Of a DNA stretch of 64,000 nt, positions 4,503-58,531 are shown in pieces; within the stretch, counting starts at the first letter, position 1; each line of letters opens with the position of its first letter. Origin of the DNA: Pseudogymnoascus verrucosus (Eukaryota); assembly GCA_001662655.1 (NCBI GenBank), contig KV460214.1. One strand, 5' to 3'. A program made the translations under genes and the position numbers. Under the pieces are notes generated by a model. That model was not told where the DNA came from. It saw only the letters and a list, made by a program, of their open reading frames with translations, and ran no database searches.

Positions 4503-4652
4503 GGGGGGGGGGGGGGAGCTGTCCAAGACTTTGAAGTACATATGGTATCAATTCCAATCTTTGCANNGGGGGGGGGGGCCGGGGGGGGGGGGGGGGGGGG
4601 GGGAGCTGTCCAAGACTTTGAAGTACATATGGTATCAATTCCAATCTTTGCA
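4503..4652. other. Poly-G tract and NN gap with a duplicated flank (probable assembly artefact)
   Basis: Poly-G + AGCTGTCCAAGACTTTGAAG...CTTTGCA occurs twice, identically, on either side of 'nn' at 4566-4567. Confidence 0.75.
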
Positions 4653-5376
4653 GAGTCCCTCTTCGGCTTTTCGGCCAGCACAATGCCACCTTTGGAGCAG
4701 CCATCATTGCCTGCACGTTTCATATTCCCATTCTCAAGAGCACAGGGATTATGGCTTGTTAATGGACATGCCCGGCCCCAATTCCGGCCTTGAGAAGAAC
4801 TCTGCCCCAAATGACGACGCTGACAGGCATAATCTAGTTGGAAAAATGCCATAACACTCCGCCAGCCAACAGTCCGTTGGCCTCCGTGGGCCTCATCCAT
4901 CTGCGACCTCTAAATTGCCCATTCGAGTTAGACCACACATGGCGTACACAGATGGCGGCCCGCACCGATCACCGATTGGACACGACGACGCTATTCCCAT
5001 TGAGGCTGTGCCAATAGTATGCACGGGGTTGGGGTACGTACCTCCACACGTCCAATCGCCGTACTTGATGCCTCGACCCTCTCCAACTCTCACCCATTTA
5101 GCCAAGAGATGGACCCTGCACCACCCACTAATCGCCCACTAATGGTTGACAGATGGATGTAAGGGCTTCCTCGGGGGTGTCAGGATGGAACCCTCAGATC
5201 ACCAGCACGCATATACCCATGCGGTCCACGACAGCCGACCTCGACCTTACTCAGCAGGACAACTCACTCAACCTCGCAACCCCGCCGGCGACCAGCTCTG
5301 ATGGCGATATAAGCACTCATCCCGCCGCTCCCGACGAATGTAGCATCTTCTAGGATCGCCGACGACGCATCTCACC

Positions 5377-6661
5377 ATGCGGCGCATCAATCTCCGGCGC
5401 GCCGCCGTGGTTCTCGGTCTCTTCTCTCCGATATCAGCTATACTCGTCGCGCCCGATTCCGACTGCGCCATCAGCTGTGGAAACGTCCTCGACGCGACTA
5501 CGCCGCCCGATATCGCATGTGGAGATAATAAATTCGGCAGCGGGGTGGGCCAGACCTTCAAGGCATGCGTGGAGTGCGAGCTAAAGAGCACTTATGTCGA
5601 TCCGACGGGCCTATCCGATTTGACTGCTGCGATCTGTATGTATCCCATATACCCTCTGTTATTCTCGTACGCGATGCTGATGGCGGCGCGACAGATAACC
5701 TGCGCTATGCGGCCGACTATTGCATCTTCAACGACTCGAAGATCGCGACCACGCCATGCATCACCACCTCCGCCTGCGAACCTTTCCTCGACTCCCTAAC
5801 TTACCATAACAACATCGCTCCATCCGGCGCAACCGACTACGGTTACTGCAATCAATGGGATGACTCAGACATATTGAGATGCCAGAACTGTGTCGCAGCT
5901 CTGGAAGAAGAGGAATACCTCGTTAACTGTACGCCCCTTCAATCCCCCATATGAGCCCTGCTAATATCCCACCCCCAGTCATGACCATCCTCAGCGCAAG
6001 CTGCCAGCAGAAACCTGGAAAGGGAGCCCTCATCGGCGTAGAAGGCGACCCCTTCTCTGGCTCGCGCGTGTCAATCACCAAGCCCTACTCCTCCGCCGAC
6101 ATAATTGCATCCTCGTTCAACCCGCCCTCCGGCCCCCTCGATCTAGGCGCCAAAATCGGCATAGCCGTCGGCGGCTTCCTCCTCATCCTCATCGTCCTCG
6201 GGACCTGCATAGTCTGGCGCGGCCGCCGACGCCGTCGCGCCATACTCGCCAACTACGCTGGATCTCCCGCCATGGCACAGGCGCCGCGCTGGAAGGGCAC
6301 GGACGACAGCCCTCAGAGCATGAGCAGCGGCGCCTTCATGACCAAGGCGTCAAATTACCAGTGGCCCGCACAGTCCACTGATGACAGCCCTGCAAGCGCG
6401 GTCAGTAAAGGAACCGGAGGAGCAGGAGGGGCCGGTTTTAGTCCGTACGTGAGCCAGCATACGAGCCCGAGTGGCCCAGCCCCCGGAGAGTTCCCTCACG
6501 TCCCCATACCAGCTCCATATAGGAGAGAGAGCATTGGAAGTTTGCGCCCGCAAGGAGAGTTAATCGAGATGAGTCCACTTGGGGAGAGTGAAAGGGAGAG
6601 GTGGGAGAGAGAAGCAGGGGCTGTAGGATTTGTGCCTGCCCCTGCGCCGACTAGAGGATGA
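5377..6661 (+). CDS. Cys-rich type I membrane protein, paralog A (family often annotated 'LPXTG-domain-containing' hypothetical protein in fungi)
   Basis: Exons 5377-5635, 5695-5928 and 5979-6661 with GT-AG introns. Signal peptide; Cys-rich ectodomain (SDCAISC...FKACVEC...YNLRYAADYC...PCITTSAC...YGYC...RCQNC...NFMTILSASCQQKP); TM GAKIGIAVGGFLLILIVLGTCIVW followed by RGRRRRR; tail with FSPYVSQHTSP. Confidence 0.85.
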
Positions 6662-6730
6662 TGGAGCAAGGGCGGTGAGATTCGTGCCTGGCCCTGAGCC
6701 AACTAGAGGATAATGGAACGAAGGGGGTGG
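6627..6730 (+). repeat. Imperfect 52-bp tandem duplication spanning the stop codon of paralog A
   Basis: GATTTGTGCCTGCCCCTGCGCCGACTAGAGGATGATGGAGC vs GATTCGTGCCTGGCCCTGAGCCAACTAGAGGATAATGGAAC. Confidence 0.7.
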
Positions 6731-9653
6731 CAATGTTTGTGACTGCCGGAATCAGGGACGGGCGGTGGCATGGATAGGGTCTCGGCGTAAATGTTTGCTG
6801 TCAGCTCCGCCCTTGGTAGATAGCCGATGTGACTGTGGCGAGCCTCGCGCTATCGATGCCACACTAAATATTAAACCACTACCACTCCCTTGCTTCCCCG
6901 CCGTCCAATCCCATCTGCATTCCATGTCTCGCGCCAGCGCCCCCTCGCAGCCGCGCACGCTTATCAATGCCGCGCTGCACTCGGGCTTACGTCTTATCAC
7001 AGGCGCCGCCCCCGCGCGAGTCACTCTACACGATGCACGCCCCGATGGGGTAGGTGGCTGCGTGCGCAAGTCTTGCCTCATCTGTCTTAAGTAGACTCGT
7101 AAGAGGGGTCACGCTGGCCGGGTAGCTAACGGCTGAGACCGCCACCAACATGTTGGTTTTCTCGGGGTGGGGCACAAGAAGGGCAATGAGGTGTTGGATG
7201 GAGGCGGTGGAGGGTGTGCGCGAGACAGAGAGGGGTGGGGACTAGACTGAGGGTGAGTTGTTGGTGGTGGGGAGGTGGATTGGTAGATTGCATAGAAGGG
7301 ATGGTGGCTTGAGGGGTATTGCTGTGATCGGCGGCATGTTTGGATTGGCAGAGAGTTCGGAGTAGTAGCGTGCTTGGAGAATGCTTGGAAAGTTCCGAAC
7401 CAGCAGGAGCATTCATCCAAGCGCGCCTGTATATTAAACAGACCTATAGCGCATCCGGTAGGCTGGTCTGCACCTCCAATCCCAGTCATTCGCCGAGAAC
7501 GCGTATGCACGCATCGTTCGTCTTGTCCCCGCCGCACATAGTTCACCGGACCGAGCTCCACTCTTGTGTTGGACATTCTTCATCGTCGTTGGCCGCGGTC
7601 TACTAGTATTGCCGTGCTTATGCCCCCAAACCTTGTCTTGACTCGAACTCTGCGTCTAGGCCCCACGACAAGAGAGGAACGTGAAAGCGCTGGCAACATC
7701 TTGTTGGCTGGCTCTTCCGACGCTACGGCGCTTGTTATAGTGGAGCGCGCGGACGTGCGTTAGTGTAAGACAGCGATGCTACCATCCCCTCCCAGAGGCG
7801 CGATAGTCCGCGATTTTAGAGGGTTACACTCTAGTTGGGGGCTATCTCGACGTGACAGTCGGAGGGAAACCCCGACCACCCGCACCCAGATACAAGTCAA
7901 GAATCGGACAAATCGGAGATGAGACGTATCACCAACAAAATAGAGTGCTCCGTGGAAATGGGAGGGGAACGGGAAGCAAGGTCGGTACCCACCAAGGCTG
8001 GGAAAGGAAAGGCTTGATGTGATTGGAACTGTGGAACCTGCATCACAATGAGATTTACCCGTGTCACCGGGCGATGCCGCAACAGTGGACCCTTCCCCTT
8101 TCCTTTTCGTAGACCCTCAATCTCCACTAGTTCTCGGGCTTGACCTTGCCTCGCGTTACGCAGCGGCTGTGTAATTGTTTGTGCCCCGTACGTGTCCTGT
8201 TCCTTGATGCTAGCGGCGCTCTTTGGGCTCCCTTGCTTGGAGCCAGCAACGTTAGAACACAGCAGCTATCGACGTACGCACAGTGCTGGTTGAGTAGTGA
8301 GCGCGGGGAGATGATTATCACTGTACTGCGCAGCTCTCGCACAAGTTCAAAACATAGTGCTACGCGACACCACACTACAGCACATCATACTCGGCCGAAT
8401 TTCTCTCGTCAAATCATACGTTGTGTTGCGTCCCAGCAAACCGCTACCAGCGCCTAATGACTGCCGCTCATTGGCCTCTGTCAGGGGTTGTCACTGGTGT
8501 CCGCCCCTAGCAGAACCACCTACCCTAGGTGGATGGTGGCGTTTGATCTGATCTGTCGACTCGCCCGTTCTCATCGGCTTTAGTTACACTGCATCGGAAA
8601 TCCTCGACAAGGTGAAAGTAGTGAGATTAGTGACACTTGGCAACTCAATTTCCTGAGACGTCGAGAAGCGGCCGGAATGTAGTGATCGACAAGACAATGT
8701 GTTTGCTTTCTTTCGTGCCATCGATGCACCGGCCATCACGTAAGTGATGTGTGCCTTCTTGTGAGACGACCTTGCTTGCACTACGTGAACTCAGCTCAGC
8801 TTCCAGTTCTCCGACTTTCATTCGTGAGTGACAAATCACCAGAAGAGAGCATCCCTTGCATGATTGGCCTACAGTGATCCAAGGTATCCATCTTGAGGGC
8901 TGCACATGGGTTAAGGAACGCGCATAGCCTTCCCGCAGGGGGGGTACTTTTGCCGCGCCGCCGACGACATTCAGGCTGCAGCGAGAATTCTATGAGAGTG
9001 TATGCGGTGCCACCACCTCATTGCTCCGTAGGTGGCCTGCGCCTTGCGTTTGCCACTTCCCGGAAGGAGAGACAGCAAGCGGGCTAGGTTGCCTAGTGCT
9101 AGAATCTGCCGTATGGGATGCACTGCATACTCCCCGTTAGGCTGCCCGAATGCGGGAGGACATTGTTGTACATGCCGAACAAGGCCCTGGGTGGTTGTTG
9201 GATGTTTGGTGGTGAGTGAAAGGCTGCTTAAGTACCGCATGTGGGACGTCGATGGATATGAAATGCACCCTCAGCCCTCTGGCACATTGTCCTCTTGAGT
9301 ATATATCGAGTGTTGCCGGCGAGATATAGAATGAGGCTTTGACCCAGAGTATTGAAGTTCTCTGGATGCTGATGAGCTTCTGCACTGCTTGTGGCTAGGT
9401 GGACTGGAATGAGAGGTTAGTCATCCATACGAGGCAAGCTTATGATAGCTCACCTGCTGCCATGCATCTTCACGCATCGTTGGAACTATTAAAGACCAAA
9501 TGCTTCCTTCCAACGTCCAACAAACTGACGGTGCATTGCAGCCTCGTCAAACGGCTTGCTATGAGAGGTTCGGCCTCAACCAACATCAACCTCGACGCCA
9601 CCGACATACCCAACAACATTGCCACAGCTTTGCTCCAATATTAATCCGCCAAG

Positions 9654-10619
9654 ATGTGTCTTTGGTGGCGTAACCGCGAGCCCATCGAAAGCTCTTTCGA
9701 CCCGCGTTTCGGCTCTGCTGCCATTACGGCCCCAACCTCGGGAGCGTTCACCGATCCCTCCACGGCCCCTCCTCTTACCGTCGCCATCCACTCCGCCGGT
9801 ACTGTCGACCAACCGCCCCCATCACCACCCATGTCCTCCATATCTCACCTCCCAAAATTCCCCAACGCAAAGCCACCCTCTTTAAATCTCGCCCGCTCAA
9901 ATAGAAGCAGCGACGCACCATCTATCCCACAACCGCTCACATCGAAATCTGCCCAGTCACACCATTCCCACCACTCTCATCACTCACTCTCCACCAGCAC
10001 CCAATTCTCCAGCTACAACTCCACGCCCTCATCTCCAGCCTCCCAGCTCCAACCCTCCCCGCAATGGCCCAAAACCTCCCCCGGCATTGGACGGCCAACA
10101 AGCCCCGTCCCGGTCCACCAGGCCTACATCCCCGCCGATCAGCTCAGCATAGGCAGCAAGTTGAGCCCAGGCTTCTCCGCCAGCAGCGCGCCAACACCCA
10201 CCACGAACGGTCCACGGACAGGCAATTCTGCCACAACCACTGTGACGAATGGTTGGGGTAGCGCTCAACCCTCGCCGACAAACATTAAAACATCATCCAT
10301 GCCACCTACTCCTGCGTCCTCCCCGCCCCTACCACAGCTACCAGAGGTGCATGGCGAGTTCCCGCAGTTCCCACAGCCGGTACAGAGCATAATTCTGCCC
10401 CCGGTGGACCAACAGCAGCAGCAACAGCCTCGCCAGTCCATGCAGCGACTCTTTGGCATCCAGGGCACGCAGGCATCCCATCCGCAGAGCAAGACGAGGA
10501 TGAACAGGATTACGCTTCCGAGTCTGAAGCTTGGGGCAGCGCCGAAGAGGAGGCCGGCGAAGACGTGGGATGAGAGGTCGCCCGAAAGTGATGTCGAGCA
10601 GTGGCCAGGGAGTATGTAA
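9654..10619 (+). CDS. Pro/Ser-rich protein, paralog B: homologous only to the cytoplasmic tail of paralog C
   Basis: 321-aa ORF with ATG in good context (ccaagATG) and an in-frame TAA at 9642-9644. N-terminus MCLWWR...FDPRFGSAAITAPTSGAF matches C's CFKWRR...YDPRYGSSSISPPTDGAY; C-terminus ESDVEQWPGSM matches C's ESVEQWPGKM. Confidence 0.75.
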   Translation: MCLWWRNREPIESSFDPRFGSAAITAPTSGAFTDPSTAPPLTVAIHSAGTVDQPPPSPPMSSISHLPKFPNAKPPSLNLARSNRSSDAPSIPQPLTSKSAQSHHSHHSHHSLSTSTQFSSYNSTPSSPASQLQPSPQWPKTSPGIGRPTSPVPVHQAYIPADQLSIGSKLSPGFSASSAPTPTTNGPRTGNSATTTVTNGWGSAQPSPTNIKTSSMPPTPASSPPLPQLPEVHGEFPQFPQPVQSIILPPVDQQQQQQPRQSMQRLFGIQGTQASHPQSKTRMNRITLPSLKLGAAPKRRPAKTWDERSPESDVEQWPGSM

Positions 10620-11205
10620 GGACCGAGGGTAGAATGGTGGCGGAGGTCGAGTGTTCTGGGCGTATAGCGGGTGCATTTTATAGGCCATGCGAGGATGGGA
10701 GTTTGTTGATTGGAACTGGGCAATTGTGTATGCCATTAGTAATTATGTGCAGACGACTTTCCTCCTGGATACGGGAGGAGCCTTCTCCCTAGTGGTGGAT
10801 ATATATCATTCATTAGCAGACAAAGAATGCAAGACAAATGTGTCCATCACAACCACATAATGCCTACAAAAAAGGAACGCACAAAGGGTCATGTCAACCT
10901 CATAATCACAATAGCATGTTTGAAAGAACATCTTGGAAGCTCTTGGCCACAGCTATAACAGTGTTGTATTAATACATCTGGGATTAATGTGCTCGTATTC
11001 AGAGCTATTAACCAGATGAATAAATTCACTCTCTGGTATTAAAAGCGGAGAAGGTCGTCCAGAGGAAGCTGCGACCTTGGTGGTTGCCTTGTTTATATTT
11101 TGAACTTCACCCAACTTCAGTTTGTTATGACGCAACTCGATCGTTCCTTCCCTCACGCGTGTATCCAAGCCTCCGATAAACTCGCCGTGGTGCTGACAAC
11201 ATGGT

Positions 11206-12351
11206 ATGTTAATCAAAGCAGCATTTGGAGTAATTACGCTAATTACCAACGTGAAGGAGGATACCAACGTGAAGGAGAAAGCCAATGTGCAGGAGGATGC
11301 TAAAGGGCAGGAAGATGCCAATGTGCAGGAGAAAGTCAACGTGCAGGAGAATGCCAATGTGAAGGACAAAGGCAATGTCCAGGGGAAGGACAATGTGCAG
11401 AAGGATGCCAATGTCGAGGATGCCAATGTCGAGGAGAAGGACAATATGCAGGAAGATTCCAATGTCCAGGAGGATTTCAATGTCCAGGAGGATTCCAATG
11501 TCCAAGAGGATTCTAATATCCAGGAGAATACCGGTGTGAAGGACAAAGCCAATGTCCAGGAGATGGACAATGTGCAGGATGATTTCAATGTCCAGGAGGA
11601 TTCCAATGTGAAGGACAAAGCTAATGTCCAGGAGAAGGACAATGTCCAGGAGGATTTCAATGTCCAGAAAGAAGCCAATGTCCAGGAGAAGGACAATGTC
11701 CAGGAGGAAGACGATGACATGAAGCCTCTGCCCCGCGATAAGCCCATTCGCGTACTCATCTCCATTTACACAAAATTGCTCCAAAGTGGTGACAGGATCC
11801 AAGAATTCCGCGGCCATATCAATGAGGCCCTTCCTATCGTTTTCAAGGATCCCGCTTTCGACACTGATGTACCAGTGGACTTGAACCTCCTGTCAGTCGA
11901 GATTAGAGTTAGACACGCATTTGCTGTCCTCGATGCTCACCACGATGCCTATGACTTTCTCACCGCTCACGAGGCAGAGAACAACAAGCTCCCTGTTTAC
12001 TCAGTGAGGCTTGGCAAGCATGGTGTGGTGGTTCAGTTTGAAAGGGCACGCTACCTCGACCAGACGATCAATTTCACAGTAGGCCAGTTGCATAAGTTGA
12101 ACGGATATGAAGTGCAGCCGCCTTTTCTTCGAGACTACACGCTTGGTCCTGTCGAGTATCGTAATAGGAGGGAATTCAAGGCGCTACTTCCAGAGAAGGA
12201 AGCGACCAAGGTGGCCGAAGAGAAAGACATTAGAGAGAATGAAGTTGAAGAGAAAGAAGTTGGAGAGAAAGATGTTGGAGAGAAAGACGTTGGAGAGAAA
12301 GACGTTGGAGAGAAAGTGGCAGAAGAGAAGTTGCCAGACGAGGCCGCTTAA
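11206..12351 (+). CDS. Hypothetical acidic repeat protein (26 NVQE(D/K)x hexapeptides, globular middle, EKDVG pentapeptides); true 5' end uncertain
   Basis: 381-aa ORF. The repeats preserve frame and the unique segment (PIRVLISIYTKLL...) looks like a folded domain. Upstream exons may exist but could not be joined in frame. Confidence 0.6.
   Translation: MLIKAAFGVITLITNVKEDTNVKEKANVQEDAKGQEDANVQEKVNVQENANVKDKGNVQGKDNVQKDANVEDANVEEKDNMQEDSNVQEDFNVQEDSNVQEDSNIQENTGVKDKANVQEMDNVQDDFNVQEDSNVKDKANVQEKDNVQEDFNVQKEANVQEKDNVQEEDDDMKPLPRDKPIRVLISIYTKLLQSGDRIQEFRGHINEALPIVFKDPAFDTDVPVDLNLLSVEIRVRHAFAVLDAHHDAYDFLTAHEAENNKLPVYSVRLGKHGVVVQFERARYLDQTINFTVGQLHKLNGYEVQPPFLRDYTLGPVEYRNRREFKALLPEKEATKVAEEKDIRENEVEEKEVGEKDVGEKDVGEKDVGEKVAEEKLPDEAA
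11248..11712 (+). repeat. Coding minisatellite, ~18-bp unit (AATGTCCAGGAGGA/AA...), 26 units
   Basis: Directly visible; units counted from the translation. One unit is 15 bp. Confidence 0.9.
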
Positions 12352-12881: not shown

Positions 12882-14927
12882 TCACATCTTCCCCGGCCAC
12901 TGCTCCACACTCTCCGCCGCACTCAACGGACTGACCGTCTCCCTCCCCACAGCATCCTGCCCTCTAAACTCAAACTGCCTCCTCTCCCCCTCAAACCCCC
13001 CATCACGTAACCTCGTCCTCGACTCACTCCTCTCCCTCCTCGGCCGACTCCCACTCCTCCTCCTCCCCCTATCCTGCCTCACGCCCTCCTCAGCCTTCTC
13101 CCCTTCCTCCCCATTCCCAGCACGCGGCAACAACTTCGCCGCCAGCTCCCGCAGACTCGCGTTGCGGGATAACGGCACGGGTCCATCAGATTGCACAGCG
13201 CTGATGGGCACCGATGCTGGGACAGGAACGGTGTTAGGGCTCGAAGTAGAGATGCCGAGGCCGATGAAGGAGCGCATATCCATTGTGTCACGGCGCGGTG
13301 CGGGGATGGGCATGGCGATGATGGGGACGGTTTGTTTGTCGAGGCGTTGGAGGGGGGGTTGGGGGAGGGGTTGGGTGGGGGGCGGTGCGAGGCGGGGGGC
13401 GTAGTCGCGGGGGGCGTAGTCACGGGGGGCGTAGTCACGGGGGTTGTAGGTGGGGAGGGGGATGGGGGGTCGGTGGTTGTGGAGGGCTGTTGGGTAGGAC
13501 GGTGGGGAGGTGGCGGAGGGAGGGGAGAAGGTGGTTGATGTGGAGAGAATGGAGGAGGCGCGGCCGGGGCGGTTGAAGTGCATGTAGGTGGAGGATGAGG
13601 AGCGGGGGTTGTAGGGCGCTTGTGTGGGTTGAGTTGGTGCTGAGGGTCGTTGGGTGGGTGCGATGACGGAGTTCATGCGGAGAGGGTTTGGAGGGCCTGC
13701 TGGGGCCTGTGGTGGTGCTGGTGCCTGTGTTGGCAGTGGGGTGATAGCACGCATGCCAACGGGTGCAGCGGCTTGAGTCAGTGGTTCTGGCGACCCAACT
13801 AAACTTGATCGGCCAGATGATATACTCGAGAACTTTGTGTAGGCGCTGGCTGGTGGGCTTGCACTGCGGTTAATACCGTCTAAAGTGATACTGTGACCAT
13901 TCCAGTCTTCAGAGACAGGCTCGGCTTTATAATTCGAGTACGGTGCCGGAATAGGTTCTGATTTGTACGAGTAGGCGCCGTCTGTAGGAGGGCTGATGCT
14001 GCTCGAGCCATAGCGTGGGTCGTAATGGGTATTTAATTTGGGAGAATTGCGGACACGGCGCCATTTAAAGCAGTAGATAAACGTGGCGGCGGCAATGATC
14101 AGAGCGACAAGCACACAAGCAACTGCAATGCCAGCTTTGGCGCCTGTGCTAAGGCCATTTGAGGAAGTGGGAGTTTCTTTGACGGGGTTGAAGGGGGTCG
14201 AGGTGATGTTGACAGGGAATCCTGAGAAGACGGACCCATCGAGGCCGATGAGTGATGATTGTGATGGGTGTTGGTTGCAACCAGCTTCGAGAGCAGTGAG
14301 AACTAATATTGTCAGTTTTGCAAAATGGAGGCGATTTTGAATGCACTACTAACAGTTTGTCACATAGATATTGCCCACCATGTGCTTCAGGCATGTGTAG
14401 CAGACCGGCTTCCGATGTACAAAGCTCTGGCTGTCCGCAGCACAGTAATCGAAGATATCTCCTGCCTCTATACTTTCATTCCCTGCACTGAGTGATTTGG
14501 AAAGCGGGTTACACGTCGTATCGACCATGCAAGGGCCGCTCAATGTCTCAGCGTTGTTGGTTCCAAAAAGGCACCCTGTCCCAAATTAGTAAATGGAGAG
14601 AATAGAGATATTTCTGTACTCACAGTCCGAGGCGAATCTCAAATTATAGATGAACCACATTTGGTCATTTTCAGCATCGGTGCCGAAGCTGCTTCCTTGC
14701 AGACAATTCAGGCATTCCTCGAACTGCTGTCCCTTCTTGGAAGTGTAGTCTTCGTCATTGCATACGATGTCTCCCTCGTGTGTCCCTGAAAGCGATTGGT
14801 CTAATGTGGAGCCGCCATTGACACACACGGTAGTGCATGGCGAGTTGGGCGTTACTCGTAGGGCAGATGCGAGGGTAACGGTGAGGAGAAGAAGTATGAA
14901 TCTGGTCCTAAAGAATGGCAAAGCCAT
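12882..14927 (-). CDS. Cys-rich type I membrane protein, paralog C
   Basis: Exons 14927-14624, 14575-14354 and 14302-12882. Signal peptide; LRVTPNSPCTTVC...FEECLNC...YNLRFASDWCLFG...PCMVDTTC...FDYC...CYTCL...NFLTALEAGCNQHP; TM GAKAGIAVACVLVALIIAAATFIYC; long Pro-rich tail with YAPRD repeats ending EQWPGKM. Confidence 0.85.
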
Positions 14928-16725: not shown

Positions 16726-18051
16726 CTACTGCCTTGCCCTCGGTGGTGGCGGCGGCATACCCATCGACGACGAAACCGTGAACCCTCTCGTCGCCGCCTC
16801 CATCGCCCATTCATTGTGCAGCCTCTGATCCTCCTGCTCCTTATCGACCGGCGTCACCACACTCGAAACCTTCTCCATCTCATACCCATGCTGCTGCGGC
16901 CACTCCCACTGCTGGGGCGCTACCGCGTCCCTCGCGCTGACGGGGCTGTTATACTGACTCGAGTACGGCGAGAAGCCGTTCTTGTCATTCAGATACGCGT
17001 TAGCGGACATGGGACTCTCTTCCTGAACGCCGCTCATGTTCGACTCCCACTTTGTGGTCACGCGCGGCGCGGGCAGCACGCGATTCGTCGAGCCGAAGCC
17101 GGTGTACTCCTCTGCGCGGCGCTGGCGTTCGGCGATTCGGGCGCGGCGGCGTCGCTTACCGCAGCAGACGATCGTGGTTCCGATTATAGCGAGCAGGACA
17201 CAGATTCCGGCAATGGCGATGCCGATGCGGGTTCCGAGGGACATGGTTGGGGCGTTGGATGTGGGTTTAGAGTCGCCATGGCTCGTAAAGTCCGTGAGGT
17301 CGACGTAGTCTCCGCCAAAGAGGTCTTTTTGCAGGGGGAGGGGGGCGCCATTTTGGTTAGCACAGCCTGCGAGGATAGTGATGAAGTCTAATGCGTGGTT
17401 AGTATTGTATCTTTGTCGTCTCCAAGGGTCAGGCTTACAATTTGATAGGTATGTTTGGTCGCCTTGTCGGATACAATCCTTGCATTTATCCACTGAAGCC
17501 GTCGGAGGAATGCTCGGGCAGTAATCGTATGTGGTAATATTGGGAGACAGGCCTTCGTATTGGAGACTACTCTGGAAAGGCTCACATGCCCGACTTGTGA
17601 GGCACGGCTAACAAACGATCAGTATATGCAGTATGAGATTCAAGGTTGGGCAATAAAGCTCACTGAATTCTGCACGGTCGAGTTGCCTGGAAAACCCCAC
17701 ATACAACTACTCATGGCATACCGAATGTTATCTTCAAAATCGCAAGTCAGCACTGACACATCTACATGAGAGAGTGATAGAAAGAAGCTTACAGAGTACC
17801 CATTTCAGGTCTGTATCTCCCGTTTTGGAGTCCATCGCAGTGCTTGTCATTTGGCATGATATGCATTTCGAGAATTCCTGACCTTTGGCCGTATTCAAAT
17901 CTGCTTCGGCGCAGAGGATCTCAGAGCCCGTCGTCGACGTGACATCCCCGCATAGCGACGCACACGGCGACGTTGGGACTGTTCGTATGGCAGCGCTCTG
18001 TCCGACGAATCCAGCTGCCACTATCGCCGTCGACGGAATTAAAAGACGCAT
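16726..18051 (-). CDS. Cys-rich type I membrane protein, paralog D
   Basis: Four exons, start MRLLIPSTAIVAAG at 18051. IRTVPTSPCASLC...FSKCISC...YNIRYAMSSCMWG...PCLTSRAC...YDYC...KCKDC...NYFITILAGC; TM GTRIGIAIAGICVLLAIIGTTIVCC followed by GKRRRRAR; tail with FSPYSSQYNSP. Confidence 0.85.
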
Positions 18052-44652: not shown

Positions 44653-46148
44653 ATGGCAGAAAACGCTGATGCTCAGCCAGAGAATACTGATGCTCAGCCA
44701 TCACTTACCCAGCCATTAACCCAGACATCGACTTCGGGGCCGAAGAAGCGCGCTCTTTTCCGCCAGCCGCTTGCGCTACAGTGGTTTGAAAATGGGGTGC
44801 TGAAAAAGCTGAGTAACGAGGAGAGACAGGCCGGAAGGTTTGAGCTGTTCCTAGATTTACTCTACGTTGCTATCCTTGCAAGTTTCGCCGATGGCCTCGC
44901 TGAACACCCCTCTGGTGTTCAGGTGGTAAAATACATTGTAAGTCTCACATCTAGACTTTTGCCATTGTGTATTTCAGCGCCTAAGTGTTTGTAGCTCATC
45001 CTGTCCCCATCATGGCACATCTGGAGTGACCTGCGCGAGCTGATGAACTCGTTCTATAACGATGATCTCGGCCAGCGCATTCTGATTCTCTGGATCATGG
45101 CGGTACTCGTCGTCTACGGCAACAACGCTGTACTCGTCGACGAGGACCTCACCGCTATGCGCGCCACAGTTGGAGCCTACATGACGGCACGCCTGTCTGC
45201 CAACACCGCGCATCTGGTCTATTCATTCTCTAGCTACCACCATCGCGCGCAGCAACGTCTTTGGTTTGTTTGTTCCTTCTTCGCTCTGCTGCTTTACATC
45301 CCATTGTACATGGAGTCGCTCTCTCTCCGCAGCAAGATCGCCGTGGCAGCCGTCGGCATCATCGTTGAGGAGATTCTCTGGGTCTTCTGCTATTCGCCCA
45401 TTGCGAAGCGTATTACGCGCTCAAAGTACACCACCGCTGCCGATATTGGACACGAGATTGACCGATTCGCGGCGTTCTACATTATTGTCCTGGGAGAGTT
45501 CTTGTATGCGATTATAGTCGGCCACCCCGCAGCTTCTGGGTTCAATGTCAGACTCCTGAGGGCAATCTGGACACTTATCATCGCATTCTGTTTCAACTGG
45601 CTTTATGTGCACAATGATGGATCGCTTCAGTTCGAGCATGCCATCAGGCACAGCATCATCACAGCATTCACTTGGGTCATGATGCACTTACCGTTGGTAG
45701 CCTCCATGCTGGTTGGGGGACACGTCGCAGCTGCGAGCACAAAGACAGAGGAACTCGAAGGCGCAGAGCTTTGGCTACTGTGCGGTGGACTTGGCATAGG
45801 CATTCTCTGCCTGTATGTGATTGCGATGTTGCACCGGTCAGATGACCCTCCGGGGACATTGATGCTGCCAAAGGTTGGTATATTCAGAGCTATTGAGATT
45901 CACCTCGCTGACCTTGAAATTAGCACCTCCGCCTAATTATGCGTCCTGTTATAGGCATCATTATCATCTGCCTCCCTCTGAGCCCACACCTCGGCGCCAC
46001 CGCTTTCCTCTCGATAATCATGGCCCTGGTTGTTTTCTGTGTCGTTTATGAGAATATCACGTCGCTGCAGTGTGGCGCGAAGTTTTGGGAGAGCTGGGAG
46101 AACACGGGGTATCCAGATGACTACAGATTGACCGATACAAAGTGCTGA
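44653..46148 (+). CDS. Low temperature requirement A (LtrA)-family membrane protein
   Basis: RFELFLDLLYVA and HEIDRFAAFYIIVLGEF motifs with multiple TM helices; introns 44938-44994 and ~45873-45923. Confidence 0.85.
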
Positions 46149-46605
46149 GCAGGTGGGACATCGACGACGAGGCGCATGTGTATATCACGTGCGTCGACCT
46201 ATTAATGCCAAGTGATGCCAAGTGACTAGCCTAAGACAGCCAAGCTCCAGTACTTCACCAATCTAGCCAGATCGGGCGTACAAGTCCTGAACTTCAACAC
46301 CTGACAGATCAATCTCCTGTCTCCAGACGATGAATGAACTGCAATATATATAATTTCTCTAATTACCGATATCCAACAGCTATTGCGACTATTTCCCGAA
46401 GAATGCAACGGCATCTGACAAAATCTGCGTGACATTTGTTCTATTGGAGCACATCGTGTTGGAGGGTACAGCTTTCACACCAGGTTCGGAAGCTGTTTTC
46501 AGCAACTCCCACGGATTCCATCGATTCGTCCATTCCTCGGACTCCTATCTGAAACAATTATACATATCCGATATAAACTCTAATTCTCAAGATTGTGGGG
46601 TAAAG

Positions 46606-46728
46606 ATCGCCAGGTGAGGAGGGGGTTGGGATCGTTCTTCTGATACCATTCGCCAGTCGGTTCTCAATCGCCAGGTGAGGAGGGGGTTGGGATCGTTCTT
46701 CTGATACCATTCGCCAGTTCGGTTCTCA
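46606..46728 (+). repeat. Near-perfect 61-bp tandem duplication upstream of the GH78-like gene
   Basis: ATCGCCAGGTGAGGAGGGGGTTGGGATCGTTCTTCTGATACCATTCGCCAGT(T)CGGTTCTCA at 46606 and 46667. Confidence 0.9.
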
Positions 46729-46948
46729 TTACCCCGACAACCTGTTTTACCTGTTCCGTCACGAGATTCAAGAGGTCAAATGTACATTTATGTCACAAGC
46801 TTCAAATTAAATCCAACGGTTACACTAGGCATATATATCATTTCCATTTTAATACATATATATTGGGGGTGTCACTTACTTCCTCCCTTTGCGCTTATCG
46901 AGATTTAACTGATCTTGGTTGCCAAATTTTACTGCCTCGGCCATCGAA

Positions 46949-49477
46949 ATGATGGTCTTTTTTATCAAATGTTTTCAGTTTTATAACACATTCTTATTCT
47001 GGCTATGGGCAATTAATCTGGCAGATGCTGCTCCAGACGCCGGACGCTCTTATACCCCGGTTGCCTATGCTATTGGCACCGGGCCAGTAATTGACGGCCT
47101 TGTGAAATATGCGGGCGAGCCACTGAAGCTGGACGCTGCAAACCCCGTCGTTACTCTCGACTATGGAGCAAACGTTGCTGGATTTCCCTTTGTTGAAGTC
47201 TCATCCGTTTCTGCATCTGGTGCCCAGATCGAACTGAAGTACTCTGAGCCATTTGGAGGTTTGAAGGAGCCATGGTCAAATGGACCCTTCTTGTACGTCA
47301 ACGGTCTTATGAATTCTTTCCGCACGGAGACCTTCAATGTCTCCACGGCCGGATCGACGACGTCTTTCTTCATTCAGGGTGGTCAGCGTTGGCAATCGAT
47401 AACTCTCCTATCGAAGGAGCCCATCACCATCAACGGCGTAGGCTTTAGAGCATCTGTCGATATCAGGCCACTCAATGAACTCCCCGGGGCATTCTCGACC
47501 TCGAATAACGTCCACGATGGAGTCTGGGGCCTTGGTGCCCGGTCTTTAGACCTGGCCTGTGTCGAGGCAAAGTCGCAACCTTCAACCTGGGAAGTCAGCA
47601 GCGAGGGAGCCCTGGTCCGCGGTCAGTATCCCGCCATTTCTCTGCGGGGTACTGGCTTTAAAAATTACGAGATGTCTTTCTCAACGAAGATCGTCACAGG
47701 CGGAGTGGGATGGAGAGTTGCTGCAGGTCCTAATGGCGGCTATGGGCCATATTTTGTCTTAAGCACTGGAGGACCCAAGCTTCTGAGCACATCTCCGCTA
47801 CAGTTGAAACCGAATAGTCTTATTGCCGGCTATGGATTCAGCATTATTAACCAGCAGCTGCTGCCTTCTGCGCCTGCTCAGAACTTCAATGTGCCGATGG
47901 ATTTGGCGGATAATGAGTGGTATCGCATTACTACGTCCATCACCTCTACGGGATACAATATCTCGATTAATGGGACACACGCCGCATTTGTTCCCGGCGA
48001 GCCCTTTAAGCCATACATCCACCCTGGCATTGGTACTTCTGCGCTCACAGATGGCACCTTTGGATTCGGACCCTTCTTGAACCAGGCAGCGTACTATAGA
48101 GACGTCGAGGTTATTGGTCAAGACGGCTCAGTACTCTACACCAACTCTCTCACGGGGGATGATGTCTACGAAGAATATGGGATAGCCATGAACCCCCGTG
48201 CTGTTTGCTTGGATGGGTCTGCGAGGGATCGAGAGATATGGATCGGTGATTTCGTGCACACGGCTCGGATGATTGCAGTCAGTACTGGCCGCTATGACTA
48301 TATCCAGAGCATGATCGACTTTGAATTCGACTGGCAGTTCCTGGATGGGCCTGGTGCAGGACTGGTTCCCATGCAAGCACCGATGGGAGTAGGGAAGCAG
48401 TACAGAGACATACTCTACCCATTGCAATTTGGCCAGACCGACTACCATTTCTTTTTCTTGGTTACTATCGGAGATTATTACACTCTGACAAACGACTTGG
48501 ATTTATTAAGCAAACACTGGAATGGAACGAAGTTCCTCGTCAAGACGCTTGTTTCTCGCTATCTCGACACCAAGACCAACCTCTTTGCAGCTCCCGATGC
48601 ATTCTGGTTCACAGCCCAGAACACACAGCACGCCACGGCCCCAACAGCATTATTCGTAATTGCCCTCAACAAGCTTGTTGAAATCGCCAAAGCCCTCAAA
48701 GATACCGAAACAGCTGATTACTACACAAGTCTCTCCAGGACCATCAGCAAAGCCGTAAACGACCAGCTATGGTCCAAAACCCTAGGCGCATACAGCATGT
48801 CCCTTGACCACCTAGGCGACACCGCCCTCCTCGCCACCGCCTTCACCATCCGCGCCGGAATAGCCAATACCACACAAGCCACAACTGGGATCCAAAAGCT
48901 GAGCGACCTCTTCTACCAAATCGGGTACAAAGACTCTACCGCAATCGGCAACGGCCCCGGCACCCAACTCTCACCCAACGTCCAGGGATTCTTGCTTGAA
49001 TCCCTATTCCTCGCACACACCCAGCTCAACGTCGCCGCTAGCGTCGTCGTCCCTGTGATCAAGGACCTGCTCGAAGTATACTGGCCGAAAATGCTCAACC
49101 AGAATCAGTTCCGCACAGGCTCATCATGGGAATATGTCTTCCCCGATGGCAGCCCAGGGATCGGGTTATTCACCAGCTTGAATCACCCCTGGGGCGGAGC
49201 GCCGACGTATGTTTACACGGACTTCATCTTGGGTGTAAGGAGGGAGAGGAATGCGGCGACGGGGGTGGTGGGGTGGGTGTTTGATCCGGTTTGGGAGGTT
49301 GTGGAGGGGTTGGGGTTGGAGTGGGCGAAGGGGAAGATGCCGTTGCCCGAGGGAGGGTGGATTGAGGCGAGTTGGACGGGGACGAAGGGGAGTACGCAGA
49401 TGGAAGTTAAGGCCCCTGGGGGGGTGGTGGTTGAGGTGAGGCAGAGGGATGGGTCGAAGAGGAGGGAGTTGGTGTAG
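46949..49477 (+). CDS. Secreted GH78-like alpha-L-rhamnosidase / six-hairpin glycosidase, intronless
   Basis: TLDYG, QGGQRW, CLDGSARDREIWIGD, SSWEY and SLNHPWGGAPT motifs; N-terminal hydrophobic signal. Confidence 0.8.
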   Translation: MMVFFIKCFQFYNTFLFWLWAINLADAAPDAGRSYTPVAYAIGTGPVIDGLVKYAGEPLKLDAANPVVTLDYGANVAGFPFVEVSSVSASGAQIELKYSEPFGGLKEPWSNGPFLYVNGLMNSFRTETFNVSTAGSTTSFFIQGGQRWQSITLLSKEPITINGVGFRASVDIRPLNELPGAFSTSNNVHDGVWGLGARSLDLACVEAKSQPSTWEVSSEGALVRGQYPAISLRGTGFKNYEMSFSTKIVTGGVGWRVAAGPNGGYGPYFVLSTGGPKLLSTSPLQLKPNSLIAGYGFSIINQQLLPSAPAQNFNVPMDLADNEWYRITTSITSTGYNISINGTHAAFVPGEPFKPYIHPGIGTSALTDGTFGFGPFLNQAAYYRDVEVIGQDGSVLYTNSLTGDDVYEEYGIAMNPRAVCLDGSARDREIWIGDFVHTARMIAVSTGRYDYIQSMIDFEFDWQFLDGPGAGLVPMQAPMGVGKQYRDILYPLQFGQTDYHFFFLVTIGDYYTLTNDLDLLSKHWNGTKFLVKTLVSRYLDTKTNLFAAPDAFWFTAQNTQHATAPTALFVIALNKLVEIAKALKDTETADYYTSLSRTISKAVNDQLWSKTLGAYSMSLDHLGDTALLATAFTIRAGIANTTQATTGIQKLSDLFYQIGYKDSTAIGNGPGTQLSPNVQGFLLESLFLAHTQLNVAASVVVPVIKDLLEVYWPKMLNQNQFRTGSSWEYVFPDGSPGIGLFTSLNHPWGGAPTYVYTDFILGVRRERNAATGVVGWVFDPVWEVVEGLGLEWAKGKMPLPEGGWIEASWTGTKGSTQMEVKAPGGVVVEVRQRDGSKRRELV

Positions 49478-49615
49478 TTGTGAATGATTTTGATAGTTGC
49501 TGCAAAGGTATTGGAGACGATTCTGGATGCACGATACGGGTTGACGAATGGAGCAAAATTATTTTTAGTTATATTTCAATGGGATCTCACACCTCTGCGT
49601 CGGCCAGATCTTGGC

Positions 49616-49743
49616 AACTGGTCCGCCACCACTCCTCGTGTTAATTTTTACAGTGCCTGTCCAGAATTCCATGCTGGAGGGTAACTGGTCGGCCACCACT
49701 CTGTTACAGTGTCTGTCTAAAACCCTGTACTGGAGGGTAACTG
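49616..49743 (+). repeat. Imperfect ~60-bp tandem duplication
   Basis: AACTGGTC(C/G)GCCACCACTC...TTACAGTG(C/T)CTGTC...CTGGAGGGTAACTG occurs twice. Confidence 0.65.
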
Positions 49744-49880
49744 TTAGCATAACAATCCTAATGAGTGACCCTCCAATATACGCCTACCTTCAGAGACCAA
49801 TAGTTGCCACACGGACCTTTAATGTCCATTAACTCAGATGCCCCGAGCCAGTAACCCACATACCGCACCCTGCCCCCAGC

Positions 49881-50084
49881 GTCTTAAAACCTTAAGATAT
49901 CATAGAGTGACTGCGGGGTAATACGACATCTCCGCACGGTTCCCAACCAAAAACCGCCGTTGCATGATTCAGCCCCCCTGCCATTCGAAGCTTCGACGAA
50001 TCGGCGGTTTTTGGGTTGACTATGGACGGGCATATTATATATCACCTTCCTACTCTATATCTCACGTAAATCGAGTCTTAAAAC
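49881..50084. mobile_element. Candidate degenerate MITE/foldback element
   Basis: Inner inverted repeat CAACCAAAAACCGCCG (49944-49959) / CGGCGGTTTTTGGGTTG (50002-50018), weaker outer arms, and flanking 10-bp direct repeats GTCTTAAAAC at 49881 and 50075. Confidence 0.4.
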
Positions 50085-51046
50085 TTCATAGCTACCTCCG
50101 TGCGTAAATACGTGCGTAAACGACAGTGAGTAGAGTCCCATCCTCGCCCTCTATCAGCTTATGTCAATCCAGTAGTATCACACAATCCATCTTCTACCCG
50201 CCCGGGTTACCAGATCATCACCCGGCACGATGCGATAATCGCGCTGCAGCAGAGTGAGATGTGATCAGCGAGCTGAGTTGCACATCATCAAGATAAACCT
50301 GTATCCCACCATTAGCGCCTAAGCGGAATCGCGGACGAGAGCGTCGATCATGGTCTTGGCGTCGGGGAATGGGGATGCCGATGGCCATGTTTATCTGCCG
50401 CGATGCCCGAGATGCAGGTGAGAAACCCGCAGAGATGGGATGATTAAGCTTGTATGAGAGAGAGATTGAGTTGAGTCTCTGTGTTTATTTGGGGGGTTTT
50501 AAGTGCTGTCAATTGCCGCTGTCATTTACGGTTATCCACGCGGGTGGCTTTACCAAGCTTCAACGCCACGATAACGACCTGCCGCCCAAGGCACTCGACC
50601 GGAAATCAGAGCCCACGGCGTTCTTTCTCCACTTGGCACGCACTGGATACGAAGTGTGGTGAAATACGATAAACGAAGTTATCAATATGCTGTACACGCT
50701 TACTTCAGCACGTTTACGTGGGATGAAACTTTGGAAATGTTCGGCGTTCCTGCGCATTGTCCGGATCTACGAGTAGGGCCGAGTCGGCGATGTCAGAGCG
50801 TTGCAGATCACTGTGATCATCGTCATGGCGAGGGTTTGACGTGTGGTTAAATGAAAAGTTAGTTCCGAAGAAGAAGCTGGTATCGCTAGGTGGCTATTAC
50901 GGCCGAATTGACTTGACGCTTGGAATCAGTATGGGAGTGGGGATTGAGGAGAGGTATAAAGATAGCTTCATCCCAACCTCTAAGTTCTGTTTGGAGTTCA
51001 ACTGAATCAGCTCCTACCTCCTGTATACCAATCTAAGCGTTTGAAA

Positions 51047-51845
51047 ATGGGCAAATTCACCTACGCAGCTCTCGCTGCACTGCTCGTCGCTACTGGGGAT
51101 GCTCAATCCAAGAACCCCGGCCTTGGGATAAACTCTCACGCCCAAGGAGCCACGGAGGAGGTAACACCGGGAGGGGGTCCAAACGGGTGAGCAGTTTCCA
51201 CGCCCAACTCCATCTCTTACCCTCAACTAACCTCCCCCCTCCAGCTCCGAAGACTGGCTCAACACCGGCCTGACTGGCAACGGCTGGGAACCACCCTACC
51301 TCAACCTCAACGACGTGATCCACATCTCTCGCCCCGACTTCTACTCCGGCGTCGGCTCGCGATGCCAACAATACGACAGCTACTTCCAAAAAGCCGGTGA
51401 CGGGCATGGCATCGACCCCGTAATCCTGGCCATCATCGCCATGCAAGAGTCCTCCTGCAACGCCGACGCAGGCGGCCCAACACCCGGCCTGATGCAAGTC
51501 TCGTGCGCCAACTACCCGAATGGAGTCTGCACGGACAGCATCCAGGATAACGTTGACGCCGGGGCGAATTACCTGCGCGGCCAGCTCGATGATGCGGGTG
51601 GGAATGCTGTGTCGGCGTTTGGGAAGTATAATGGCTGGTTCACAGCGGGGTTGGGGCTGAATGGGAATAGGGGGCTCACGACGGATTATCCGTGCTCGGC
51701 GGAGGGGAAGGCGAATGGGTGGCCGCAGAATTTGGATTATTTGCAGCAGGTGCTGAATGGGTGGTTGTTGGGGCTGGATGTGTATGGGGATGATAACTGG
51801 ATTGGCACGTATAACTGTGATCAGTCGTGTTCGAATGGGTGTTAG
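51047..51845 (+). CDS. Secreted GH23 / SLT lysozyme-like protein
   Basis: Signal peptide MGKFTYAALAALLVATGDA; intron 51187-51244; GPNG|SEDWLN.G...GW.PP; IAMQESSCN (catalytic Glu), GLMQV, N+.AGA.YL and YNGW. Confidence 0.85.
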
Positions 51846-52454
51846 AGGGTTTGCGGTGAAGACTGTTTATCAATTGTATCTACTGTACAGTACAGCATTG
51901 TCCAGTAGTAGAATATCTTTTGTTCTGTGGTAAAATGGATCTTGGATCGATGCTTGTTAAGGCTTCTTATCGAGGTTGAGTGCCATGTGGACGGGAGGGA
52001 CGTTGGATTGGACGGAGACGGGATCGATGCCGGAGCACGGAGCCTTGGTCCGATGCTTATTTATCCGGTACCTAGTATTTAAGGCACCGACTCCACTTCG
52101 CCATGGCACCATCGCGTACAAATAGCGCTGAAACCGCATAAACTCTACTAGAACAACAACGCCGATGGATCAAATATCATATCTTCTTCGCTTCAATTCT
52201 TCTTCATCTTTAGAATCACGGTACACTAATCGTGTCTATCTGCCGCTGCGATCCGTCGAAAATTCAGGAAAATAACCAGAATACCCATTTAAATTGCCCA
52301 GTACCAGTCTAATGCATAATGACTCGTTTACAATATGATCGTCAACAGCTAATTTCTGATATTCACATGTTTTCCCCCGTCCGAAGCCGCGGCATTTTTT
52401 GCAAGGTTCTTCCCCACATGCTCCAGTATTTGTTCCAGTACTACTCTAGTACGC

Positions 52455-52610
52455 CTAACCTGCTAAACTCCTCCTAAACTCTCCACTAACATCTCTCTAA
52501 ACCCCTCTAACTCGCCTCTAAACCCCTCTAACTCGCTTCTAAAACCCTCTAATCCCTCTAATCCCTCTAACTTCCCCTCTAAACTCCCCGTCTAACCTTC
52601 CTAACTCAAC
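52455..52610 (+). repeat. Degenerate (CCCTCTAA)n-like low-complexity repeat
   Basis: Many variants of CCCTCTAA(A/C/T) in tandem. Confidence 0.7.
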
Positions 52611-53146
52611 TCCGTACCTGCCGCAATCCTGGTTGATCGCATCTAACCCTTGCTCCTTCCCCCCCGCAAACGCTAAGCGCTTTTATGTCTTGTTTACACC
52701 TTCATCCCCGCCGATCGCCTGTCGTGTTTCCTCAAACTACGACGCTGCAAGCATAGTAAGCCCGCTGTCCCTGCTGCCGACTGCTTCTAAACCTTGGATC
52801 TTCCACTTTCCGCAATTATGGGTATTGTCATGCGGCCAATCGCAATGTCACCTCATCTTGTTCCCCCGCGATTGTGCCCTGCCCACATGCGATGATGATC
52901 GACTTTCCCACCTTCAACCCCCGGAGGAACTAGGCTCACGGACTCCGTCAGCGCGGCGAGGGGGAGAAAAAAGGGAAAGGATCCCATGTGCAAATGAGGG
53001 AGTAATAAAAGAGAGTATATAACCAATTCGTCCTCCCACCACCCATTCCTTCTTTTGCCCCTCTCCCGTAAGAAACCAACAAGCTTCAATCCATCCAAAC
53101 AAACCACCTTCACTTCCACCCTCAACCCCCCAACCAAACCGTCAAC

Positions 53147-53674
53147 ATGCGTTTCTCCATCCTCCCCATCGCCCTTCTGGCCACCACCGTCGTCGCTGAT
53201 GGCGCCTCCATCCTCGCCGCCATGGCCAAGATCTCCAGCGACACCTCCAAGCTCAACGCGACCATCTCTAACTTCCACGGCGGCCTGATTGGTCTCGGCG
53301 AGTCGATCCCCATCCTGATCCAGAGCACCACCCTTCTCCACGACATTAACCAGGGCACCAAGACCGCGACCGCCTCGGCCGAGCTCACCTTCGACGAGAC
53401 CATCCAGGTCGCCGGCGCCACCGCCGATCTTGTTAAGGGCGTCCAGTCCTCCCTCCAGACTATCGTCGATACCAAGCCCGAGTTCGATCAGCTGCTGGTT
53501 ATCAGCCCGGTTATCTTGATCAACCTTGAGCAGCAGAAGGCGGCGACGGATAAGTTCAGCAAGGCTGTTGTTGCGAAGCTGCCGGAGCAGTTCCGTGCTA
53601 TCGCTGAGAGCATCACTGCTCCTATTGATGTTGCTTTCGATGATGCTATTGCGAAGTACAAGAAGTTCTTCTAG
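53147..53674 (+). CDS. Hydrophobic surface binding protein A (HsbA) / Mp1-like secreted cell-wall protein
   Basis: 175 aa, signal peptide, amphipathic helical pattern; K..FD...V...L...K.....FS.A+..KLP...F..AI..Y is typical of HsbA. Confidence 0.8.
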   Translation: MRFSILPIALLATTVVADGASILAAMAKISSDTSKLNATISNFHGGLIGLGESIPILIQSTTLLHDINQGTKTATASAELTFDETIQVAGATADLVKGVQSSLQTIVDTKPEFDQLLVISPVILINLEQQKAATDKFSKAVVAKLPEQFRAIAESITAPIDVAFDDAIAKYKKFF

Positions 53675-54048
53675 ATGTAGAACGGGATGTTAATTTTTTG
53701 GGGGTGTTTCTTCGGAGGAGGGTTTGGTGAATGATTGGATGTTTTGAATATGAGGGGGAGTGGGATAGGGGTTGAGTTGGAAATATAATTCAATTTATTC
53801 ATCCTGCATATCTGATCTTTTTCACTTTAGTGTTGACTTTTGCGAATTGAGTTTAGATTATCAAGTAGCTAAAGGTAATACTTCCCACGATATTTAAGGT
53901 TTACCGAGAAAGGTGGAGATATCGATATCGGCGACTACGAGGGGAAGGTATCATATTCATCCCACTACTTATGGTCGGGAGCAATATATCCATGGGGGTA
54001 ATTACTTAGGTGTGTGTAGGACCACCACCAAGCTATCAAGGAACCGCG

Positions 54049-58444: not shown

Positions 58445-58523
58445 GATTGAAGTGAGCTGGAGAGTCTTGAGAGTTTGATACTGTGATGATGAGAGAAAGG
58501 AATTTGAGGTGGGATCGGGCACA

Positions 58524-58531
58524 GCTTTATA
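58524..58531 (-). promoter_or_regulatory. TATA box of cbh1
   Basis: TATAAA on the minus strand ~80 bp upstream of the ATG. Confidence 0.5.

Follow-up and report, generated by a model that had tools for sequence, protein, structure and literature searches.

The window analysed here, a stretch of 64,000 nucleotides from contig KV460214.1 of Pseudogymnoascus verrucosus, contains a 13-kb cluster in which A, B and the repeat-bearing ORF E lie on the plus strand and C and D on the minus strand (Table 1). The products of A, C and D are built alike, with a signal peptide, a Cys-rich ectodomain, one transmembrane (TM) helix and a disordered tail, an architecture which suggests that they are receptors. 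The two introns of A (5636-5694 and 5929-5978) are spliced in all four RNA runs, the first joint being placed 2 nt to the left of the GT..AG pair by the transcript tool. Removal of the introns 14623-14576 and 14353-14303 from C gives a three-exon model identical to P. verrucosus record P0057, and the model of D reproduces record P0064. A genome search with the first exon of C recovered A, C and D, i.e. at least three full-length members.

Table 1. Features of the A-D cluster, in window coordinates.
Feature	Position	Strand	Description
Paralog A	5377..6661	+	391 aa; signal peptide, Cys-rich ectodomain, TM helix, short type-1 tail
B leader exon 1	9305..9415	+	Non-coding; 5' ends of contigs at about 9305 and 9338
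B leader intron	9416..9541	+	126 nt, GT..AG, CTGAC branch-like site; from RNA contigs
Leader part of B exon 2	9542..9653	+	27-codon upstream ORF in the frame of B, ATG at 9561, TAA at 9642-9644
Gene B coding sequence	9654..10619	+	321 aa, one coding exon, P/S/T-rich, tail-only
N-terminal MCLWW and two basic residues	9654..9677	+	Predicted lipid/surface anchor in place of a TM helix
Juxtamembrane motif FDPRFG..I.APT.GAF	9696..9761	+	Residues 15-36; common to C and P0055; shuffle tests
Third motif PVHQAYIP	10110..10133	+	Residues 153-160; common to the TM-bearing outgroup P0055, absent from C
C-terminal SP.S.VEQWPG.M and stop codon	10578..10619	+	Also in the distant fragment P0054
B 3' untranslated region	10620..10829	+	Contigs of all four runs end at 10767-10829
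ORF E	11197..12351	+	Acidic, repeat-bearing, unrelated to B; at the centre of the mirror
Paralog C	12882..14927	-	648 aa; signal peptide, Cys-rich ectodomain, TM helix, long type-2 tail
Paralog D	16726..18051	-	385 aa, type-1 tail; introns 17792-17732, 17663-17608, 17438-17388

Tandem repeats are found at several places in the cluster. In ORF E, an 18-nt repeat in about 25 copies (11255-11708) and another of 15 nt (12219-12316) lie on the two sides of a conserved middle; its relatives P0022 and P0025 are without most of these repeats, and P0025 is without a Pfam family. In the tail of C, a 15-nt repeat (3.4 copies at 13393-13443, minus strand) varies in copy number between orthologs, and a 52-nt tandem duplication (6613-6729) spans the stop codon of A. 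In the segment 4413-4909, identical sequence flanks two N (4566-4567) on both sides, which probably results from an artefact of assembly joining. Elsewhere in the window, the region 44995-58540 contains ordinary enzyme and surface genes: an LtrA-like gene (44995-45936), an alpha-L-rhamnosidase (46913-49477), HsbA (53072-53674) and a GH7 enzyme with CBM1 (56838-58540). The plus-strand ORF 51231-51845 has a transglycosylase SLT domain (PF01464, E 1.7e-7), as in a lysozyme-like enzyme, here in a fungus.

The protein encoded by B contains a single cysteine, at position 2, and no hydrophobic segment, its best 19-residue Kyte-Doolittle mean being 0.36, whereas the TM helix in an ortholog of C reaches 2.96. 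According to an earlier note on this DNA, B begins where the cytoplasmic tail of C begins and has juxtamembrane and C-terminal motifs in common with it. Both observations hold: in the alignment, Cys2 of B falls opposite Cys253, where the TM helix of C ends, and the scores of residues 1-40 of B with the tail of C (84) and of its last 15 residues with the end of C (45) were each reached by none of 1000 shuffles. In the same alignments and shuffle tests, neither the tail of A nor that of D matched the first 40 or the last 15 residues of B. The claim that only two motifs had been kept has to be revised, since PVHQAYIP is a third ancestral motif, bringing the number to at least three: this segment scores 54 between B and P0055, a value reached by 1 of 1000 shuffles, as compared with 110 of 1000 for the corresponding comparison with C. 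The middle of P0055 is moreover collinear with the tails of both B and C (none of 500 shuffles in either case). A second Trp pair is present in B only, being absent from C and P0055. When B was compared with the tail of C by plain, composition-adjusted BLASTP, no alignment was better than E = 13; evidence for the homology of the two thus comes from the short motifs, the shuffle tests and the profile search described below. No Pfam family matched B at E up to 0.1, and a protein kinase domain is absent; a PDB sequence search returned four weak matches, none below E 0.019, and the best score in an Atlas search with B, 0.85, is a lead at most.

Transcription was followed in contigs from 4 of 24 listed RNA runs (X1, X2, X9 and X15, from three studies) over positions 5000-11200; such contigs are blind to start sites, expression levels and rare isoforms. 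The splicing of the A introns indicates that all four runs contain RNA. The GT..AG joint between 9415 and 9542 sets the strand of the B transcript as plus, and this leader intron is spliced in X1, X2 and X15 (two studies) and retained in X9. The in-frame stop just upstream of the B ATG, described in the earlier note, is the TAA of the upstream ORF; the note, which reported no signal, Cys-rich or TM exon upstream, is right as to coding exons, but overlooked the non-coding leader exon. In the spliced leader, stops close the frame of B and five upstream ATGs occur, the ORF of the last one ending 9 nt before the B ATG; code for an ectodomain or a TM helix is absent from it. The depth over 7484-9139 is zero in X1 and X2, so that B is separate from A in those runs. 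Contigs of X9 and X15 cover the interval between A and B, which may reflect read-through from A or DNA. In these two runs the A contig continues for about 1 kb beyond the stop codon (6662-7760) and contigs of lower depth lead onward to 9415; in X1 and X2 a short segment near 7200-7480 is also covered, and a loose end occurs at 7308. On the other side of B, the contigs of all four runs end by 10829, which corrects the gene models of five database records that join B to ORF E; we consider these fusions to be mis-models.

The same contigs bear on the idea that B forms the final exon of a larger membrane protein, which would arise by rare splicing from A or from some other exon upstream, or by editing of, or read-through past, the TAA. 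In favour of this, a branch-like site precedes the phase-0 AAG at 9651-9653, and near 7560 and near 8168 there is a hydrophobic 19-mer free of stops; contigs of X9 and X15 cover the interval between A and B, and an isoform rare enough would be dropped by contigs. However, the contigs of the four runs pass straight through the start of B, and their crossing of 9542-9654 without a joint means that this AAG is not an acceptor in these data; neither splicing into it nor an upstream coding exon was seen. Read-through would add non-hydrophobic sequence only, and no exon of the family lies upstream. A longer form is therefore, in our estimation, very improbable.

The absence of a family exon was established for the interval 6662-9653, where the best tblastn match to an ectodomain or TM remnant had an E of 0.26 and three family exon HMMs gave -2.8, -1.5 and -4.3 bits, scores equalled by 64, 40 and 84 of 100 shuffles, respectively; A, C and D, all of them in the training set, score 68-143 bits. 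The earlier note, which had found no signal, Cys-rich or TM exon in the upstream 3 kb, is thus confirmed by searches that stay at chance level. Two apparent traces of such exons were rejected. The leader intron of B and intron 2 of C both begin with GTTAGT, but their phases differ, and against the exon HMMs the leader does no better than shuffled sequence; the other trace, SSNGL, a match of five residues in another frame of the leader, was spotted post hoc and is treated as chance. At the DNA level, the interval from A to B and that from D to C showed no similarity at E up to 1.

Named homologs of B are found in Pseudogymnoascus only. We counted as orthologs the 21 records with the central motif, leaving out P0022 and P0025, which correspond to ORF E, and the fragment P0023; all of them come from one genus and they are thus not independent. 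The MCLWW start is present in 20 of the 21, the remaining record beginning at an internal Met on a 1181-nt contig. Cys2 is invariant and, in all 21 full-length N-termini (B included), is flanked by LWW and two basic residues, the latter being retained despite variation at positions 6-8 (RNR, RSR, SKR or RKS). The 22-residue stretch 15-36 is identical in 20 of the 21 records, and EQWPG is kept in 19. The reading frame is likewise kept in 19 records, with 86-94% identity and length changes that are all in-frame; the orthologs P0009 and P0026, from two isolates, leave the frame after about residue 214, owing either to a real lesion or to a gene-model error. Over 18 orthologs, conservation amounts to 96-99% in residues 1-40, 75-81% in residues 41-80 and 75-98% in the other 20-residue blocks. 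The middle of B, described earlier as diverged, is so with respect to C (28 of 300 shuffles score as high, or 43 of 300 with local shuffling), but not among the orthologs. In X9 and X15, B differs at about 7-10% of bases and its flanks at about 6-7%, so that B is no less divergent per base than they are; gaps, in contrast, are rarer in the coding part of B than in the flanks and appear right after the stop codon. Of eight listed differences within B, five are synonymous where 25% would be expected, which in so small and selected a sample lends weak support. In metagenome contigs, from which near relatives are possibly absent, a search for B ortholog DNA yielded 597 pattern stretches, none of them confirmed, and a degenerate scan yielded none.

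B is thus a real, transcribed, tail-only gene that is conserved throughout the genus. Expressed here, and with its frame intact in 19 of 21 ortholog records, it shows neither the disrupted frame nor the lost expression of a pseudogene, in agreement with the earlier suggestion of function rather than decay. A transcribed remnant, that is, a truncated duplicate which is little translated and slowly decaying, and whose conservation reflects the youth of the genus, would be consistent with the five upstream ATGs, the two records out of frame, the leader intron retained in X9 and the failure to find, among 1.84 billion representatives, a tail-only ortholog with a known N-terminus outside Pseudogymnoascus. 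It would not, however, account for the frame kept elsewhere with in-frame length changes only, for the peak of conservation at residues 1-40, for gaps that are rare before the stop codon and begin right after it, or for ectodomain exons erased past recognition next to an intact tail. We regard decay as quite improbable, and the conclusion that B is functional as well supported.

A, C and D are members of a family of ascomycete proteins that has been named automatically 'LPXTG-domain-containing protein' (Atlas scores 0.92-0.94, with 28 of 30 hits in one set); P0057 bears the same family name in UniRef. No Pfam model of this family was found and no curated definition of it exists; its features were read from alignment A6. 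Since neither B nor C contains an LPxTG motif, the name does not describe them. The core of the family, NLR(Y/F)A, lies in the Cys-rich ectodomain, and this core, the signal peptide and the ectodomain as a whole are all absent from B, which has the juxtamembrane Cys followed by basic residues that is found in the family, together with the tail motifs of the C-type branch, (D/H)PR(F/Y)G..I..PT.GA(F/Y) and EQWPG.M. Lacking ectodomain and TM helix, B is a derived paralog of the C-type branch rather than a full member. The fold predicted for the C ectodomain is too weak a model (mean pLDDT 53, pTM 0.44) for searches with it to carry weight: Foldseek gave no match at E up to 0.001, and the VIA matches involved the TM helix only (best Z 4.3).

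A profile of B and the C tail, run against 1.84 billion representatives at E up to 0.001, gave five hits: two B clusters, C, P0054 and P0055 (E 3.4e-4). P0054 is a distant, B-like C-terminal fragment of 93 aa whose N-terminus lies outside the record, and P0055, a TM-bearing protein, carries the juxtamembrane motif, EQWPG.M and PVHQAYIP. The tail-only orthologs that the earlier note proposed to look for in related genomes exist across Pseudogymnoascus, but none with a known N-terminus was found outside this genus among the representatives searched, by a profile which, being built from one genus, may miss remoter forms. The sharing of PVHQAYIP with P0055 and not with C implies that B is not a clipped copy of present-day C. 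Both descend from one TM-bearing ancestor, of which they have kept partly different pieces.

The arrangement of the cluster may tell how this came about. Tail similarity separates A, D and P0040 from B, C and P0055, and a tree of the ectodomains splits (A, D, P0040) from (C, P0041) with support of 100/99, under a long-branch warning; A scores 319 against D but still 301 against C. Taken together, tails and ectodomains show that the order of the cluster, type 1 > type 2 ... type 2 < type 1, is mirror-symmetric. The spacing is similar in the two halves, with 2996 nt between the stop codon of A and Cys2 of B and 2651 nt between the stop codon of D and Cys253 of C. The annotation of P0041, from Stylonectria, places it after a GH43 domain in one fused protein, probably through a merged gene model, and its tail is of neither type 1 nor type 2. 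We lean somewhat towards an old inverted duplication of a two-gene unit, made up of a type-1 and a type-2 gene, which would have produced A>B and D>C and been followed by loss of the outer part of B; independent duplications are the alternative. B would then have lost its signal peptide, ectodomain and TM helix so as to start at the last turn of the old helix, and the truncation would have turned the ancestral juxtamembrane Cys into residue 2.

A Cys at the end of a TM helix is a usual acylation site, and removal of Met1 is expected when Cys follows. Such a Cys is present in 18 of 20 TM-bearing relatives and missing in 2 of 10 C-type records. In B, the cysteine is invariant, is homologous to the juxtamembrane one and is flanked by LWW and basic residues, which makes Cys2 a plausible candidate for palmitoylation; a conserved N-terminal Cys in a protein with no TM helix is also what is seen in N-terminally S-acylated peripheral proteins. 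The reading that we tentatively prefer is that B, a tail protein, would be held by a lipid against the cytoplasmic side of the membrane and would there provide the full-length receptors of the cluster with a docking subunit independent of ligand. After removal of Met1, Cys2 would be S-acylated, aided by LWW and the basic pair, and the three short motifs could recruit at the membrane the cytoplasmic partners of the ancestral tail. It counts against this reading that the leader, with its five upstream ATGs, may limit translation of B. The mirror layout makes A as likely a partner of B as C; B could serve A, or C and D, and the most likely beneficiary would be A, which itself lacks a type-2 tail. 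The earlier observation was largely right and is backed by RNA and orthologs, and the role that it proposed is plausible from the sequence; an adaptor or competitor of C is nevertheless too narrow a description, in view of the mirror and of the loss of PVHQAYIP by C, and the proposal was too centred on that paralog.

The absence of a Gly2 or other myristoylation site and the presence of a single Cys count against a lipid anchor. Together with the want of any hydrophobic segment and conservation that extends over the whole length rather than to the ends only, they would suit a soluble intracellular domain, encoded by its own gene and mimicking a tail released by proteolysis, which would act in the cytosol or nucleus and in which MCLWW would be a binding or degradation signal. 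The compensating changes that preserve the basic patch in 21 of 21 N-termini speak against this. PCO/ADO Cys dioxygenases act in the oxygen-sensing Cys N-degron pathway; a search for them (PF07847) gave no candidate in this genome, an absence that, in an intron-containing genome, is not proof but weakens such a role for MCLWW. A soluble protein thus seems to us unlikely.

If B is instead tethered to the membrane, as we prefer, it might still be a decoy, binding the partners of the C tail while not being triggerable from outside and so damping C signalling or setting its threshold. A protein that combines the juxtamembrane and C-terminal motifs of C with no ectodomain and is transcribed as a unit of its own could behave in this manner. 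Yet B retains PVHQAYIP, which C does not have, and in both records from P. destructans C ends before EQWPG while B is whole and includes it (P0028, P0061 and P0062), which fits better with B supplying the motif than with B competing for it; we find the decoy doubtful. One annotation of P. destructans splits C in two.

It is tempting to speculate further that type-1 and type-2 proteins work in pairs, D with C, and that A and B are a receptor split after the duplication, although we would not put this forward as the likely state of affairs. B would in that case exemplify a natural exchange of a TM helix for a lipid within a paired-receptor system of ascomycetes, with sensing left to A alone and lipid-anchored B supplying the ancestral signalling motifs in trans, an outcome of which we are equally doubtful.

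In their general layout, A, C and D resemble Wsc1/Mid2, Msb2 and Opy2, which we take to be fungal single-pass sensors and adaptors: a Cys- or S/T-rich outer part, one TM helix and a disordered tail with docking motifs. Pfam gave no match to WSC, Mid2 or Opy2 at cut-off; the best was Mid2 (E 0.016), which stayed under the gathering score and fell on the TM region of P0055, and an Atlas cluster containing Opy2 scored only 0.76. To our knowledge, no tail-only paralog of any of these proteins exists. Sortase-anchored LPxTG proteins have their LPxTG before a C-terminal TM helix and a basic tail, an arrangement seen in neither B nor C, and no such Pfam family was found in them. Within the fungal 'LPXTG-domain-containing' family, B stands out in having a tail from the C-type branch with no signal peptide, ectodomain or TM helix, and according to one paper (PMC10779208) fungal 'LPXTG domain' proteins have no reported role. 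No study of A, B, C or D, by locus tag or by family, was found in the open-access literature, a scope that leaves out most subscription papers. The closest parallels come from elsewhere. Plant BKN pseudokinases are described as relatives of receptors without extracellular and TM parts that carry N-terminal lipids and are proposed scaffolds (PMC6907349). BKN- and BSK-like proteins, however, have a kinase fold and are both myristoylated and palmitoylated, whereas B shows no homology to them and lacks both a folded domain and Gly2, so that the likeness is an analogy only. Env7 of Candida albicans (CaEnv7), which is palmitoylated at its N-terminus, lacks a TM helix and depends for its location on N-terminal cysteines (PMC4973633); it is a kinase with two such cysteines that is not derived from a receptor tail, in contrast to B, with one Cys and an origin in a receptor-like tail. 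Each of these precedents uses two lipid sites, as compared with the one candidate Cys of B.

How signals are relayed by single-pass surface proteins without a kinase is poorly understood in filamentous fungi, and A, C and D belong to a family without a described function. On the reading that we prefer, B would be a receptor-derived adaptor devoid of an ectodomain, a known kind of protein which here occurs in an orphan family and whose known range is one genus. As a natural truncation, it marks the parts of the long, disordered tail that matter, namely three short motifs and the juxtamembrane Cys, and these are directly usable as baits for finding partners. If Cys2 is acylated, B would offer a clear example, in a fungus, of how a receptor can become a cytoplasmic adaptor, like the receptor-like cytoplasmic kinases of plants.
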